Under the pieces are notes generated by a model that was given only the letters and a program-made list of their open reading frames with translations, was not told the DNA's origin and did no database searches. A DNA stretch of 64,000 bases from Escherichia coli (lineage in GTDB: Bacteria > Pseudomonadota > Gammaproteobacteria > Enterobacterales > Enterobacteriaceae): NCBI RefSeq assembly GCF_030013595.1, contig NZ_CP122768.1. One strand, 5' to 3'. A program made the position numbers and the translations under genes. Of this stretch, positions 3,366 to 16,520 are shown piece by piece (the first letter of the stretch is position 1; each line of letters begins with the position of its first letter).

Positions 3366-3431
3366 CGGTTTTCTCCGGTGGCACGGTGTTACTCAGCAGG
3401 AGTTCAATCCTGTTCTGGATTGTAGATGAGT

Positions 3432-3692
3432 TTATTCTTCTGCAAAAGCAGAAAATCCAGCCTTAAGACCAATCTCTTTCAGAACCTGTAATGATGTTAC
3501 AAATTCATCTTCACGCAAAATAAAACCGTCCGTCATAAGCTCATCAACAAAATAAATTAACACAGCTCCGCTCTTCCTTTGTTGAGATTGCAAACATTTA
3601 ATTCGGCAGTGACTGGCTATAACTCCATTCTCAACGCGTACAGCATAGAGGCCATTTTCACTAAAAATTTCACAAAATTCTTCGATTTTCAT
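3432..3692 (-). CDS. hypothetical protein, 86 aa
   Basis: ORF with AAGGA Shine-Dalgarno upstream of the ATG; lies downstream of the 9-bp repeat tract. Confidence 0.45.
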   Translation of the reverse strand: MKIEEFCEIFSENGLYAVRVENGVIASHCRIKCLQSQQRKSGAVLIYFVDELMTDGFILREDEFVTSLQVLKEIGLKAGFSAFAEE

Positions 3693-3834
3693 CTTCAGAA
3701 TCCTTCCAGATAAATAGCTCTCCCCTTCTCAGGGTCCATCCCTCTTGTCCCTGCGCGCTACTCAAAACAGGAGGATTCTAATTAATCTTTATTTCTAAGC
3801 AACGCAAAAAACAAACCAAAAAAAAGACAAAACC

Positions 3835-3933
3835 ACAAACAATACAAACAATACAAACAATACAAACAATACAAACAATACAAACAATACAAACAATACA
3901 AACAATACAAACAATACAAACAATACAAACAAT
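3835..3933. repeat. perfect tandem repeat (ACAAACAAT) x 11
   Basis: eleven identical 9-bp units read directly in the sequence; preceded by an A/C-only tract from about 3801. Confidence 0.95.
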
Positions 3934-4010
3934 ACAGGCGCATCGATAATTAATTAACTTATCGGGTTACAAGGTAATATAACTTCAGTTAAAATTATTA
4001 ATCTCTTATT

Positions 4011-4040
4011 CGTGAAAAACAAAACCCGCCGAAGCGGGTT
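4011..4040 (-). terminator. intrinsic terminator of the hok transcript
   Basis: CCCGC-CGAA-GCGGG hairpin at 4025-4038 followed on the minus strand by TTTTGTTTTT. Confidence 0.6.
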
Positions 4041-4108
4041 AAGTGCGGGTGCTTTGAGGATGCCTGACACATCAGAGGTGGCGAGGGATTTCTCCCTCGC
4101 CTGGTCTC

Positions 4109-4264
4109 TTACTCCTCAGGTTCGTAAGCTGTGAAGACAGCGACCTCCGTCTGGCCGGTTCGGATTCGTACCTCGCAGAGGTCTTTCCTCGTTACCAGTG
4201 CCGTCACTATGACGGTTAAACAGATGACGATCAGGGCGATTAACATCGCCTTTTGCTGCTTCAT
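4109..4264 (-). CDS. hokD: Hok/Gef-family type I toxin (HokD/RelF-like), 51 aa
   Basis: hand translation gives MKQQKAMLIALIVICLTVIVTALVTRKDLCEVRIRTGQTEVAVFTAYEPEE; below the 60-aa cutoff of the ORF track. Confidence 0.85.
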   Translation of the reverse strand: MKQQKAMLIALIVICLTVIVTALVTRKDLCEVRIRTGQTEVAVFTAYEPEE

Positions 4265-4474
4265 AGCCTGCTTCTCCTTGACCTTTCGGTCCGTAAGAGG
4301 CTAATCTCTATGTGTCGCATAGATATGGCCTCAGATTAATGTTAAGCGTCTTGCAGGACGCGTAATGTTAACTGGGGCTTTTCTCTATCTGCCTTTTGGT
4401 GTTCATGCCTGAGGCAGATAGCCTCAAGCACCCGCAGCAATTCTACTTAACTCTCCTTTTCCCGCAAACCGTTT

Positions 4475-9166: not shown

Positions 9167-9689
9167 ACGAACCCCTGGCAGACATTTGTTTATCTGCAAA
9201 GTAATATTGGTATTGCTGACGATACGCGTGCTTGAAAGCAATAGCTTTTTCTATAAGCTCGTCAGTCTCACGTTCCACAACAGCTGGATCCGCAAAAAGC
9301 AGCCCGGACTCCACCACATCGCCATATTCTTTGTTTAACCCGGCGATCATGTACGTAATGCTTTTTCCGTCAGTAATTTCACAATACAACCTGAAATCGC
9401 TGATCCGGATAGCCTCCATAATTGCCGGAATCAGCGCCGTGAATTTTTCCCGCTTATCCCTGGTGTCGATAGCTTTCCAGCGTTCGAATATCTTCACCCG
9501 GTTAACGCCCAGCGCCCGTTGATCAACCGCGCCATCATCAAACGTGACGCGTTGAACATCGATGTTCGGGCGTTCTTTCAGAGCCCAGAAGGCTTCCGTG
9601 ATTAATATCGTCGCCTGCTCCTGTGTCATTCCTGGTCGGCACACCCAGGCATCCAGAGCCTCACAAACCTGTTCAGGGGTGATTTTCAT
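9138..9689 (-). CDS. early-region protein in the cII position (YdaT-like?), 183 aa
   Basis: ORF between the cro-like gene and the O-like gene; weak recalled resemblance to YdaT-family proteins. Confidence 0.4.
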   Translation of the reverse strand: MKITPEQVCEALDAWVCRPGMTQEQATILITEAFWALKERPNIDVQRVTFDDGAVDQRALGVNRVKIFERWKAIDTRDKREKFTALIPAIMEAIRISDFRLYCEITDGKSITYMIAGLNKEYGDVVESGLLFADPAVVERETDELIEKAIAFKHAYRQQYQYYFADKQMSARGSYEYRCTTMG

Positions 9690-9900
9690 TGTTCAACCGC
9701 CCCGCCCGCTTTGCCTTACGATATTCGTCATAAACTTTGGGGTCGTACTGAAGTTCCCCGCCGGATGCCTCTTGCAGGCGCATCGCGCGACCTTCAGGAA
9801 CCAGTTCCCCCCATGCAGCAATGCTTGCCAGCCTAACTCCTGCGGCATTGGCAAGCTTTGTTTTGCTGCCAAAAAACGCTATAGCATCAATTTTCAACAT
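9673..9900 (-). CDS. dicC: DicC-like (Cro-type) repressor
   Basis: 75-aa protein close to DicC as recalled (…FGSKTKLA…AAG…LVPEGRAMRLQEASGGELQYDPKVYDEY…); divergent from dicA. Confidence 0.75.
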   Translation of the reverse strand: MLKIDAIAFFGSKTKLANAAGVRLASIAAWGELVPEGRAMRLQEASGGELQYDPKVYDEYRKAKRAGRLNNENHP

Positions 9901-9976: not shown

Positions 9977-10384
9977 ATGAAAAACGAAACCTTCGGTGCT
10001 CGCCTCTTACATAGGCGTAAAAAATTAAAACTGTCTCAGGCCGCATTAGGTAAGCTGGTCAAAGTGGCTCACGTAACAATTTCTCAATGGGAAAGAGATG
10101 AAACACAGCCGGCGGGGAAAAGATTATTCGCACTGAGCCAAGCGCTTCAGTGCTCACCGACTTGGCTTCTTTTTGGGGATGAAGATAAACAACCAGGCGA
10201 ACCGATCCCGGATAATCAGCCAGCCATTCTGACAGAAGATCAAAAAGAGTTACTTCAACTGTTCGACGCACTGCCTGAGTCAGAGCAAAAGGCCCTGTTG
10301 TCAGAGATGCGTGCTCGAGTTGAAAATTTCAACAAACTTTTTGAAGAACTACTCAAAGCTCGCAAAAGAAGCGCAAACAAATAA
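9977..10384 (+). CDS. dicA: DicA-like HTH (XRE family) repressor
   Basis: 135-aa protein close to DicA as recalled (…SQWER…FALS…LQCSPTW…FGDEDKQP…NFNKLFEELLKAR…). Confidence 0.8.
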   Translation: MKNETFGARLLHRRKKLKLSQAALGKLVKVAHVTISQWERDETQPAGKRLFALSQALQCSPTWLLFGDEDKQPGEPIPDNQPAILTEDQKELLQLFDALPESEQKALLSEMRARVENFNKLFEELLKARKRSANK

Positions 10385-12639: not shown

Positions 12640-15102
12640 ATGAGCGCTGATAAAGAAGAAATTGCACTATATTACGAAGCCAAAAATGACAAAGTCAGAA
12701 AACGCCTTGGGATTAAAGGCGGTTTTTACTGGCGCACAGCAAAAAAATTATCGATTGCAATATCACGCGGTGTTGTCGCAATGGACGATGCCGGATTTGA
12801 CGAAGAGGATTTTAAAAAACCTGTTCGCGTCCATTTACCCGTTGTGAATGACCTTCCTCCGGAAGGCGTGTTTGATACCGAATTCTGCAACCGATACGAA
12901 AAAGGCGGGGAAGATGGTATCACAATGGTACTTATCGCGCCCTCTGTTCAGGACAAACCAGCCAGCACTGACAATACCAACGTCAACGGTGAAGACATGA
13001 CTGAGATTGAGGAGAATATGCTCCTGCCAGTTTCAGGTCAGATTCTGCCTGTTCGATGGCTGGCGCAACACAACAGCGAAAAACCGATCACGCACGTTTC
13101 GCGGGACGAACTGCGCGCATTACATAACGCACAGGATGAAAAACTTCCCGCCGTTACCGCGCTGGCCATCTCAAATAAAGCAGCGCAACTCGAACCACTG
13201 GAAATTCGCGATCTCCACAAACTGGTACGCGACACTGACAAAGTTTTCCCTAATCCTGGTAATTCAGACCTGGGACTGATGACCGCTTTTTTCGAAGCAT
13301 ACCTGGGCGCTAACTACACCGATCGCGGTCTGCTTACAAAAGAGTGGATGAAGGGAAATCGTGTTTCACGTATCACCCGCACGGCTTCCGGCGCTAATGC
13401 TGGCGGCGGGAACAAAACCGATCGCAATCCGAATTTAGTACACACCTTCGATACGCTGGATGTGGAGATTGCAGCAGCCACACTTCCGATGGATTTTAAT
13501 ATTTATGAAATTCCGGGCAGCGTTTATCGTCGCGCAAAAGAAGTCGTCCGGAAGAAAGAAAGTCCGTTCAAAGAATGGTCCGCAGCACTTCGCGCAATCC
13601 CGGGTATCCTGGATTATTCCCGTGCCGCTATTTTTGCACTTATCCGGAGCGCCCACCCTGAACTTTACCTCTACAGGGTACGCCTTCAGGTGTATATCAA
13701 CGCCCACTTAACGGAGACTGATCACGAGAATCCTACCGAGGAAACTCTCGCTGCTGCACGACATACACCGGAAAAAGATATCCTGGAAGAAGTTAACCGC
13801 GAACTGGCTGCTGCTAAACACGAAACAGAAGAAGAAAAAAATAATGAGGAAAAATCACAACCGTCTGACGCAATGGCAGATGAACAGGCAACGACTGAAA
13901 CAATGGAGCCGGATACAACTGAACATCGCCAGGACACGCAATCGCTGGATACTCAGGCGCAGATAGATCCGGTTAATCAGGTAAAAGTTACCGCTGACGA
14001 AGTAAACAAAATTATGCAGGCAGCCAATATCAACCAGCCTGACGCCAATCAGTTGCTTGCTGTATCACGTGGTGAATTTGTTGCAGGGATTAGCGACCCG
14101 AATGATCCGAAATGGGTGAAGGGGATTGAAACCCGCGATTCAGTGAATCAGAACCAGCAAGAAATGGAACAGAACGACCAGAAAGCGGAAAAAAACAGCC
14201 CAAATGCGTTACAAAACGAGCCAGAAACGAAACAACCTGAGCCAGTAGCGCAACAGGAATCGGAAAAAGTCTGCACCGCCTGCGGTCAGAGCGGTGGCGG
14301 CAGCTGCCCTGATTGTGGCGCGGTGATGGGCGACGCAACATACCAGGAAACATTCGATGAAGAGAATCAGGTTGAAGTTCAGGAAAATGATCCGGAGGAA
14401 ATGGAAGGCGCTGAACATCCACACAAGGAGAATGCTGGCAGCGCTCAGGACCACGCCAGCGATAATGAAACTGGCGAGACGGCAGATCCCTTAATTGCGG
14501 TGAACGGTCATCACGTTATCACATCCACCAGCAGAGTGTGGTACCACCTGATGATCGACCTTGAAACAATGGGAACCAACACCAATGCGCCCATCGTGGT
14601 TATTGGTGCGGTTTTCTTCGACCCACAAACAGGGGAAATCGGGCCAGTATTTTATATCGTTATCAGTCTGACTGACGCAATGAATACAGGGGCTGTTCCT
14701 GACGGTGGAACCATCGAATGGTGGCTGAAGCAGTCCAGTGAAGCCAGAGCTGCCATTTTAACAGACCAGGTAAAACTGAAGGATGCCCTTTCGCGGTTTC
14801 GGGAGTTCATCAACGAATACTCAGATGAAAAATTCGTTCAGGTATGGGGTAATGGTGCAACTTTCGATAACGCAATTTTGCGCACCTCATACGAACGTCT
14901 GGACATCCCCTGCCCGTGGCGCTACTACAACGATCGCGATGTACGCACAATCGTTGAGCTGGGAAAAACCATCGGTTTTGATGCCAGAACAGCTATCCCG
15001 TTCGAAGGTGTACCCCACAATGCACTGGATGATGCCCGTCACCAGGCGAAATACGTTTCAGTAATCTGGCAAAAACTGATCCCGAGTCAGGCTGATTTTT
15101 AA
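12640..15102 (+). CDS. prophage exonuclease (YdfE/exodeoxyribonuclease VIII-like), 820 aa, with C-terminal DnaQ-like DEDDh 3'-5' exonuclease domain
   Basis: C-terminus has Exo I (MIDLETMG), Exo II (WGNGATFD) and Exo III (HNALDDARH) motifs; acidic low-complexity linker and C-x2-C-x9-C-x2-C motif; sits upstream of xis-int. Confidence 0.7.
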   Translation: MSADKEEIALYYEAKNDKVRKRLGIKGGFYWRTAKKLSIAISRGVVAMDDAGFDEEDFKKPVRVHLPVVNDLPPEGVFDTEFCNRYEKGGEDGITMVLIAPSVQDKPASTDNTNVNGEDMTEIEENMLLPVSGQILPVRWLAQHNSEKPITHVSRDELRALHNAQDEKLPAVTALAISNKAAQLEPLEIRDLHKLVRDTDKVFPNPGNSDLGLMTAFFEAYLGANYTDRGLLTKEWMKGNRVSRITRTASGANAGGGNKTDRNPNLVHTFDTLDVEIAAATLPMDFNIYEIPGSVYRRAKEVVRKKESPFKEWSAALRAIPGILDYSRAAIFALIRSAHPELYLYRVRLQVYINAHLTETDHENPTEETLAAARHTPEKDILEEVNRELAAAKHETEEEKNNEEKSQPSDAMADEQATTETMEPDTTEHRQDTQSLDTQAQIDPVNQVKVTADEVNKIMQAANINQPDANQLLAVSRGEFVAGISDPNDPKWVKGIETRDSVNQNQQEMEQNDQKAEKNSPNALQNEPETKQPEPVAQQESEKVCTACGQSGGGSCPDCGAVMGDATYQETFDEENQVEVQENDPEEMEGAEHPHKENAGSAQDHASDNETGETADPLIAVNGHHVITSTSRVWYHLMIDLETMGTNTNAPIVVIGAVFFDPQTGEIGPVFYIVISLTDAMNTGAVPDGGTIEWWLKQSSEARAAILTDQVKLKDALSRFREFINEYSDEKFVQVWGNGATFDNAILRTSYERLDIPCPWRYYNDRDVRTIVELGKTIGFDARTAIPFEGVPHNALDDARHQAKYVSVIWQKLIPSQADF

Positions 15103-15154: not shown

Positions 15155-15433
15155 GTGATAACCATGAGCGAACAGTACCTGATAACGCTCGACGAGTGGA
15201 AACCAAAACGGTTCAGTCTCCCAATAACAAACACCACCCTGGTGAAATACGGAAAACTAGGATACATCGTTCCAAGACCACAAAAAATTCGTGGGCGTTG
15301 GCTGATAGATCGCCGGGCAGTATTTGTTGGACCTGGTGAAACAGGAATTGCGCCGGAAATTCATACTGGCGATGATGATGCACTGAAGGAGATTTTAACT
15401 CATGTCACCGAGGCCACGAAAAAACAGCACTGA
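15155..15433 (+). CDS. xis: excisionase (Xis)
   Basis: lambda-Xis-like N-terminus (…LITLDEW…RPQKIRGRWL…), directly upstream of and overlapping int. Confidence 0.7.
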   Translation: MITMSEQYLITLDEWKPKRFSLPITNTTLVKYGKLGYIVPRPQKIRGRWLIDRRAVFVGPGETGIAPEIHTGDDDALKEILTHVTEATKKQH

Positions 15434-16520
15434 CGTAGCCGGTCTTTACGAAAAGTTTGATCGCAGAACTGGCAGGGTTTACTACCAGTATAAAAACCCT
15501 GTGACTGGAAAATTTCACGGACTCGGAACAGACAAAGGTAAGGCAGAAAAAATCGCTTCCACAGCCAATCAGCGAATAGCTGCAGCAGAGGCTGAATATT
15601 TCATGCGCAAAATTGATGAAAGTCCGTCAGCAACAAAACGTCGGGGTATCAGATTAAAGGCATGGGTTGATCGATATCTGAAAATACAGGACGCGCGACT
15701 GAAAAATGGAGATATTGCAGCTACAACTCACAAAGAAAAAGCCCGAATGGCTGCATACCTGGTTTCCCGTCTGGGAAACCACCCATTGAAAGAACTGGAA
15801 GTAAGAGACTTTGCATTAATACTGGATGAGTGGCTGGATAAAGACATGGTCAGCACAGCGAGAGTAAATCGCGGATTATGGGTTGATATTTATAAAGAAG
15901 CACAGCATGCAGGGGAAGTTCCTCCTGGATGGAATCCTCCGGAGGCTACCCGTAAACCGATCCCTAAAGTAACCAGAGCCAGGCTCACCATGGAAGACTG
16001 GCAAAAAATTTACAATGCAACGCCTGAAAAACACTTTATCCGTAACGCAATGCTTCTTGCGATTGTTACTGGTCAGCGCCGTGATGACATTTGCCACATG
16101 CGTTTTTCAGATGTGTGGAACGAACACTTGCATATCACCCAGGGAAAAACCGGAATGCGTCTGGCGTTACCGCTTACACTACGCTGTGATGCCATTGGGA
16201 TAACGTTAAAAGAAGTTATTGATGGGTGCCGAGACAGAATATTAAGTCCATATCTAATCCATAGTCGGCACCAGAAACAACCGAAGCCGATGAGTAAAGA
16301 CAACCTGAGCGACTACTTTGCCAAAGCACGGGATCTGGCTGGGATAATTCCACCAGCAGGAAAAACTCCGCCAACATTTCATGAACAACGCTCTCTATCA
16401 GAACGGCTGTACCGTGCACAGGGTATCGATACAAAAACATTACTAGGACATAAAGTCCAGGCAACCACCGATCGCTATAACGATACTCGAGGTCAGGAAT
16501 GGGTTAAGTTGGTTATTTGA
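15402..16520 (+). CDS. int: tyrosine-type site-specific integrase
   Basis: 372-aa ORF with an integrase-typical C-terminal region (…HEQRSL…LLGH…TDRYND…), next to the chromosome junction. Confidence 0.85.
   Translation: MSPRPRKNSTDVAGLYEKFDRRTGRVYYQYKNPVTGKFHGLGTDKGKAEKIASTANQRIAAAEAEYFMRKIDESPSATKRRGIRLKAWVDRYLKIQDARLKNGDIAATTHKEKARMAAYLVSRLGNHPLKELEVRDFALILDEWLDKDMVSTARVNRGLWVDIYKEAQHAGEVPPGWNPPEATRKPIPKVTRARLTMEDWQKIYNATPEKHFIRNAMLLAIVTGQRRDDICHMRFSDVWNEHLHITQGKTGMRLALPLTLRCDAIGITLKEVIDGCRDRILSPYLIHSRHQKQPKPMSKDNLSDYFAKARDLAGIIPPAGKTPPTFHEQRSLSERLYRAQGIDTKTLLGHKVQATTDRYNDTRGQEWVKLVI

Follow-up and report, generated by a model that had tools for sequence, protein, structure and literature searches.

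The array of perfect 9-bp repeats that lies just upstream of a rem homolog in a lambdoid prophage of Escherichia coli is, with a probability of about 0.7 in our estimate, a near-neutral hypermutable VNTR produced by slippage and without required function. In the mechanism proposed, slipped-strand mispairing in replication would make the array and keep its units perfect, and the array would have grown from a degenerate A/C-rich tract that was there before it; the spacer in which this tract lies, between rem and the hok terminator of a DicA/Rem-type prophage, is AT-rich, non-coding and specific to the lineage. Whole 9-bp units are gained and lost far faster than point mutations appear in the flanks, and the sole mechanical effect of the array would be to place 36-117 bp of extra DNA upstream of the putative rem promoter, from about -67 outward. 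Near-neutrality is most likely given that the array seems dispensable and its copy number unconstrained, and it is the pattern of alleles that points to slippage.

Sequence and composition of the repeat array

Tandem Repeats Finder places the repeat at 3835..3936 of the window, that is, of the whole 64-kb stretch of DNA analysed, with 11.3 copies of a 9-bp unit, 100% matches, 0% indels and a score of 204, and direct reading of the letters agrees with this call. The array is made of 11 full units, ACAAACAAT on the + strand, followed by the partial unit ACA that ends at 3936; the unit reads ATTGTTTGT on the - strand, the sense strand for the genes nearby. An A/C-rich lead-in tract (3803..3834), containing an A6 run at 3806-3811 and an A8 run at 3818-3825, adjoins the array. 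The first-pass annotation, made from the letters of the sequence, had described eleven identical 9-nt units in a tract almost devoid of G on the + strand, and both observations are borne out: from 3803 to 3936 that strand holds 90 A, 31 C, 11 T and 2 G. The range it gave, 3801-3933, spans the lead-in and the 11 full units, whereas the array proper runs from 3835 to 3936. In 100-nt windows over 3800-3900 the GC content is 0.26, the GC skew -0.85 and the AT skew +0.81, and the block 3800-4000 has 26% G+C.

The array is far beyond chance. The 64-kb window has 13 occurrences of the unit ACAAACAAT, of which 11 lie in the array; dinucleotide-preserving shuffles predict 1.08, and a count of 13 was reached in none of the 100 made. 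A VNTR is characterized by a short unit repeated head to tail at one locus, as is the case here. Perfect short arrays had been considered unusual for E. coli, and they are indeed uncommon, although they belong to a known class in this species, that of the MLVA/VNTR loci (PMC3777172). The other tandem repeats that Tandem Repeats Finder reports in the window have at most 3.3 copies each. The 820-aa ORF at 12640-15102 contains an imperfect 21-bp tandem repeat (14166-14235; 3.3 copies, 67% matches), located where an acidic low-complexity stretch of the protein is encoded.

Genetic context and the rem homolog

The array is located in the nin-like region of a lambdoid prophage in the E. coli chromosome, among genes that are all on the - strand. 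A hokD-type toxin gene of 51 aa (4109..4264, -), taken from the ORF list and annotated as hokD in all related genomes, is accompanied by the hok leader/sok antitoxin region (4262..4433, -; Rfam RF01794, 108.3 bits against a gathering score of 59) and by the intrinsic terminator of the hok mRNA (4023..4040, -), for which a terminator scan gives a 7-pair stem, a loop of 4 and a T-rich tail. Toward lower coordinates follow an AT-rich spacer specific to array-bearing lineages (3937..4018; present in only 20 of 5,426 E. coli genomes, absent from phage records), the array with its lead-in, the conserved rem leader (3693..3768, -) and the rem homolog itself (3432..3692, -), a putative antirepressor of the prophage's DicA. 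The first-pass annotation had correctly placed the repeat, with the hok terminator (stem 4040..4023) on one side and the region upstream of the ORF at 3432-3692 on the other. Beyond this ORF, in the direction of low coordinates, lie a 92-aa ORF, a DUF968 gene, rusA, a Q-type antiterminator gene and four tRNA genes. These phage-borne tRNA genes (454-763, -; Gly-TCC, Thr-TGT, Lys-TTT and Met-CAT) are found just downstream of the Q antiterminator gene. The replication genes are about 4 kb from the array, and the window also has the rne leader, SraB and potCD. The integrase gene (15402-16520) abuts intact potC (from 16687) and potD, which suggests integration of the prophage at the potB/potC junction. 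At the joint that the array occupies in the window, E. coli PSS-15 has an inserted type II toxin-antitoxin pair between hokD and the rem-like gene (L013, 1521-2204), made up of a toxin gene of the death-on-curing type and a small gene upstream of it.

The 86-aa gene downstream of the array had been taken for an orphan, a view that does not hold, as its product is 71% identical, end to end, to the Rem protein of phage mEp460 and of K-12-type Qin prophages, with which it shares the C-terminus GFSAFAEE. It also has 85% identity to a 95-aa Rem variant and matches phrog_340 (E = 5e-17). In 11 genomes (L002-L012) PGAP flags the gene as a 'frameshifted' pseudogene; this label probably reflects only the comparison with the 95-aa variant, and since the alignment is full-length and includes the C-terminus, the rem homolog is probably intact. 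Rem is the antirepressor of Qin and, when overproduced, relieves the DicA repression of the Qin dicB promoter 165-fold (PMC10448788; PMC11430063); its natural inducer has been reported as unknown (PMC10448788). The same prophage contains dicA (9977-10384, +; NCBIfam NF007257, 237.3 bits with a cut-off of 101) and dicC (9673-9900, -; NCBIfam NF007282, 167.9 bits with a cut-off of 130). Full-length similarity to Rem is therefore found together with a DicA-type repressor, as in the Rem family, and the prophage carries, to judge from these matches, a pair made of the repressor DicA and a putative antirepressor. No Rfam match to DicF RNA was obtained at the gathering threshold anywhere in the window, so that the prophage may be without the dicBF-type cell-division inhibitors of Qin. 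A search for LexA boxes (CTGT-N8-ACAG, with at most one mismatch) gave none between 3690 and 4020, and the total for the window equals that expected by chance.

Putative rem promoter and leader

A candidate sigma-70-type promoter for rem is located at 3775..3802 on the - strand, with TTGCTT as -35 (3802->3797), a 16-nt spacer and TAGAAT as -10 (3780->3775), and scores 8/12. The hexamer TAGAAT stands 86-89 nt before the rem ATG in every lineage compared (the window, the mEp460/K-12 type, L013/L014, L015 and L016), and similarity ends there, the spacers further upstream being unrelated. Upstream of TAGAAT each lineage has a TTGnnn hexamer, and the sequences with their spacer lengths are TTGAAG-18, TTGATT-16, TTGATT-16, TTGTTA-19 and, in the window, TTGCTT-16. 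The conservation of TAGAAT suggests that it marks the rem promoter. A consensus promoter scan, for which the candidate fell below threshold, gave no site that would drive rem, with counts equal to chance, and no rem start site is listed in the supplements of two E. coli transcriptome papers.

The array starts 143 bp upstream of the rem ATG. Counted from the candidate promoter it would extend from about -67 to -168, upstream of the -35 element; the lead-in 3803..3834, at about -35 to -66, would occupy the position of an UP-like element, with its two A runs, A6 and A8 (read as T on the sense strand), at about -38 to -57 and the A8 run at about -50 to -57, and the hok terminator would lie at about -255. 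With this geometry the array cannot alter the spacing between -35 and -10 and could only move or rotate the distal DNA, one 9-bp unit being equivalent to about -51 degrees of helical phase. The proposal of the first-pass annotation that copy-number change could alter promoter spacing is thus unlikely in its strict sense, given an array upstream of the putative -35. The repeats of phase-variable contingency loci lie in a reading frame or between -35 and -10, and the array, to judge from the putative -35 and from the lack of a credible ORF across it, occupies neither position.

The leader between the promoter and rem, aligned over 6 lineages, contains a small CCCC/GGGG hairpin. Its consensus structure consists of this small GC hairpin only, with one compensatory pair, and the single-sequence fold is no better than that of shuffles (z = 0.71). 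The TAGAAT hexamer, the AGTAGCGCGCAGGGA leader and the CCCC/GGGG hairpin are conserved as a unit before two unrelated small genes, namely the rem-like gene in the window (unit at 3693-3780, -) and the gene of a 55-aa phrog_34610 protein in L048 (1405-1504). As the upstream DNA differs between lineages, this unit behaves as a portable promoter/leader module.

Distribution and allelic diversity

The array locus is present in 19 of 5,426 complete E. coli genomes (0.35%; narrower query), the whole 3400-4400 stretch in only 11 of the 5,426, and the locus was also found in three IMG/VR contigs and two metagenome contigs. It has no match among all cultured phage records, and its flank has none among GTDB species-representative genomes. 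A query of IMG/VR with three copies of ACAAACAAT returned 27 contigs, of which 25 are unrelated (AT-rich giant-virus sequences or coding Asn/Thr-type repeats) and only two, L020 and L029, belong to this locus. The prophage lineage that bears the array comes mostly from livestock, food and STEC isolates. Literature searches for the unit in both orientations gave unrelated primer and genome matches only; the locus appears to be undescribed, even though the kind of element is well known.

The alleles fall into three families, within each of which all length differences are multiples of 9. Family A comprises perfect ACAAACAAT arrays of 4, 5, 5, 6, 7, 7, 7, 8, 10, 10, 10, 11, 13 and 13 units, the allele of the window being the 11-unit member. 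Families B and C have 7-9 degenerate units: in family B two or four copies of ACAAACAAC are followed by degenerate units, and family C is of the form ACAAACAAC GCAAATAAT AAAAACAAT (ACAAACAAT)2-3 ACGAACAAT GCAAACAAT ACAAACAAT and similar, with 7-9 units. In strain DCE7 the same spacer and flanks enclose only a degenerate A-rich tract, with no 9-bp array. The copy numbers of 4-13 are evenly spread, with no preferred value and no helical-phase class, in what is a small sample of 14 perfect alleles with the same flanks from 14 independent sequences. Next to the array, the A8 run at 3818-3825 appears as A7, A8 or A9 among the alleles; A9 is common to four independent assemblies, and part of this variation could be homopolymer sequencing error.

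The array is dispensable, as it is absent both from most rem-bearing prophages and from the DCE7 allele of the same spacer. Other prophages with rem, including mEp460 of the K-12 type, have unrelated spacers of 80-250 bp without array. In family C the array and the promoter-like module precede the unrelated 55-aa gene (phrog_34610) instead of rem, which indicates that the array is not tied to rem itself.

Hypermutability of the array

The comparison of copy number among related prophages that the first-pass annotation had suggested shows that it is far from invariant, with 4 to 13 units. Flanks of 900 bp on each side of the array (1,800 bp in total) were compared for this purpose. Three prophages with 5, 10 and 13 units (L003, L004 and L007) differ from each other by 0 SNPs in the left flank and 1-2 in the right, and two others with 6 and 10 units (L008 and L009) have identical flanks, with 0 SNPs in 1,800 bp. 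Among prophages with 0-2 SNPs per 1.8 kb of flank, the arrays differ by 3-8 units, from which it follows that changes in the array are no rarer than those at all 1,800 flanking sites combined. Four strains from different sources (L048-L051) carry one and the same interrupted 9-unit allele of family C, and the perfect arrays vary; such stability of interrupted arrays fits slippage, because slippage needs identity between units. The locus therefore shows whole-unit polymorphism of copy number, faster change than its flanks and stable interrupted arrays, as VNTRs do. For VNTRs of E. coli O157, mutation rates of 4.4e-5 to 1.8e-3 per generation have been published and ascribed to slipped-strand mispairing (PMC3777172), and with such rates diversity at the array locus is to be expected. 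Varying perfect arrays, stable interrupted ones and an array-less allele read, when the alleles are compared, as the signature of slipped-strand mispairing at a VNTR, and the recent expansion by slippage that had been proposed for the repeat accords with the finding of 4-13 whole units among prophages with nearly identical flanks. Larger jumps in copy number could have come from recombination instead.

The order of expansion would have run from a state like that of DCE7 to families B and C and then to family A. With regard to the spacer, the sequence just downstream of the hok terminator occurs twice, 3781-3795 resembling 3997-4011 (80%) and 3823-3834 resembling 4015-4026 (92%), and both duplicated stretches flank the AT-rich spacer and the array. 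In array-less lineages the terminator is only about 50 bp from TAGAAT. Given the duplicated flanks and this short gap in other lineages, the AT-rich block of about 216 bp looks as if it arose at a mosaic joint of lambdoid phages, by insertion or by unequal recombination.

Alternative explanations

The position of the array raises the question of a regulatory role, and we regard it as possible, if unlikely, that the array, perhaps together with the A7-A9 run, heritably and reversibly sets the basal level of Rem through the distance and helical phase of distal DNA, which includes the UP-like T tracts and the AT-rich spacer that contains the near-palindrome of 3942-3962, the level of Rem in turn setting the frequency of prophage derepression. 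The array (about -67 to -168) and the variable A8 run (about -50 to -57) are positioned, with respect to the putative promoter, in a way compatible with a rheostat tract, just upstream of a derepressing gene and at a distance from which upstream elements can influence promoters, and upstream DNA could matter more here since the candidate -35, TTGCTT, matches at 3/6 positions, versus 4/6 in the array-less lineages. The 165-fold derepression of a DicA-controlled promoter by overproduced Rem (PMC10448788) and the DicA/DicC immunity of a prophage with no LexA box near rem are in line with such a role, for which there are precedents in the TAAA repeats of nadA, acting via operator spacing (PMC2791445), and in the T-tract of sabA, a rheostat beside the -35 (PMC4081817). 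Against it stand the flat distribution of copy numbers, with neither a preferred value nor a helical-phase class among 4-13 units, the absence of the array from nearly all rem loci and the presence of the array module before an unrelated 55-aa gene in family C; moreover, the promoter is itself a prediction and the flanking palindrome has no known binder. It is still less likely that the VNTR and the variable A-run constitute an evolvable dial on the Rem promoter, generating sub-lineages of lysogens that differ in spontaneous induction, as a form of bet-hedging; if true, this would be contingency-repeat bet-hedging of the lysis-lysogeny decision, which has not been described for temperate phages.

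The same free copy number and dispensability speak against an array of protein-binding sites, to which we give only a slim chance and in which a DNA-binding protein would be recruited by every single 9-bp unit or by the entire AT-rich block; it could be a phage regulator, or a nucleoid protein such as H-NS that nucleates on the adjacent TCGATAATTA-type motif, spreads over the array and silences rem. The low G+C content of 3800-4000 (26%), the adjacent gene, which needs to be silent in the lysogen (PMC10448788), the near-palindrome in the spacer and the mention of NAP-mediated silencing of cryptic prophages (PMC10448788) would all suit this explanation. The near-palindrome, CGATAAT-TAATTAA-CTTATCG (CGATAATTAATTAACTTATCG, 3942-3962), is next to the array and contains TCGATAATTA, and its DCE7 form is CGAAAAT...CTATTCG, where both arms differ at the corresponding position. 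The motif within it may resemble the high-affinity motif of H-NS. As DNA makes one turn per 10.5 bp, units of 9 bp do not keep the helical phase; successive ones face different sides of the helix, and bends should not add in one plane. Elsewhere in the window the unit occurs only as 2 chance singletons, and it resembles neither the DicA/DicC operator region, with its CCTAAGG-type motifs, nor LexA boxes. The selection for an array of binding sites that had been put forward as an option for the perfect repeat thus finds no support, since the array is missing from most rem prophages and from one allele of the same spacer, its copy number is free and its unit matches neither of these operators. 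Several other kinds of repeat were considered and rejected. Comparison by eye spoke against direct-repeat boxes of response regulators, DnaA boxes, IHF sites and Rho rut sites, for reasons of poor matches, the wrong period (10-11 bp expected) or no C on the transcribed RNA. The units are contiguous and without unique spacers, unlike a CRISPR array, and free copy number, contiguous 9-bp units and lack of likeness to the dicA-dicC operator region or a LexA box dismiss an iteron or operator array. As to a coding repeat or RNA element, the array is in fact crossed by two ORFs on the - strand, 3782..3943 (53 aa, MRLYCLYCLY...) and 3795..3932 (45 aa, MFVLFVLF...), contrary to an earlier statement that there is none, and the unit is a multiple of 3, so that changes in copy number would stay in frame. 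It is nevertheless scarcely credible that they encode a small hydrophobic peptide of CLY or LFV repeats, or that a U/G-rich transcript acts: the tract is nearly free of A on the - strand, which leaves all frames open by composition alone, neither ORF start is preceded by a ribosome-binding site, the spanning ORFs have no PHROG or NCBIfam matches, the A7/A8/A9 run inside both of them shifts the frame, and the peptide is not conserved in the array-less and degenerate alleles. These ORFs are artefacts of composition, not credible genes. On the RNA side, Rfam at gathering thresholds returned nothing over 3432-4100 except sok, and a C-free U/G repeat without self-complementarity is not a Rho-loading sequence.

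Relation to known systems and significance

A near-neutral VNTR, the reading preferred here, has its closest counterparts in the E. coli VNTR (MLVA) loci O157-10, TR and Vhec (PMC3777172), with which the array shares short perfect units (6-9 bp class), gains and losses of whole units, strong polymorphism between strains and change far faster than point substitution. Unlike these loci, the array is found in just one rare prophage lineage (0.35% of complete genomes), which makes it no general typing marker. It also resembles the (TAAA)n repeat of N. meningitidis nadA (PMC2791445) and the T-tract of H. pylori sabA (PMC4081817) in being a slippage-prone tract upstream of a -35, predicted in the present case, that would alter the spacing between distal elements and the core promoter. 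The units of the nadA and sabA tracts are of 1-4 bp, in contrast to the 9 bp found here, and for these tracts effects on expression, binding proteins (NadR, IHF and the RNAP alpha subunit) and in-host variation have been demonstrated (PMC2791445, PMC4081817). With the Qin Rem-DicA and the Gifsy GfoA/GftA systems the prophage has in common a Rem homolog, here directly downstream of the array, in a prophage with DicA/DicC immunity; the Gifsy antirepressor genes are LexA-controlled (PMC10448788), which is not matched here by any LexA box. A literature search retrieved no paper that links a tandem repeat to an antirepressor gene or promoter. Like iterons, the array is built of direct repeats and occupies AT-rich non-coding DNA in a mobile element. 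Iterons are longer, have helical-phase spacing and a fixed number and are bound by a cognate initiator, whereas the array is made of contiguous 9-mers of free copy number, with the replication genes about 4 kb away.

As a VNTR the array is ordinary biology, and it could be a very fast marker for tracking a rare prophage lineage. Its wider interest lies in its position only, immediately before the gene for a homolog of Rem, which as an antirepressor can switch on DicA-repressed prophage genes. The natural allelic series, of 0 and 4-13 units and of interrupted arrays on near-identical backgrounds, is a ready-made experiment on the length of upstream DNA; if no effect were seen, the locus would illustrate cleanly how a neutral repeat can expand out of low-complexity sequence where lambdoid phages have a mosaic joint.
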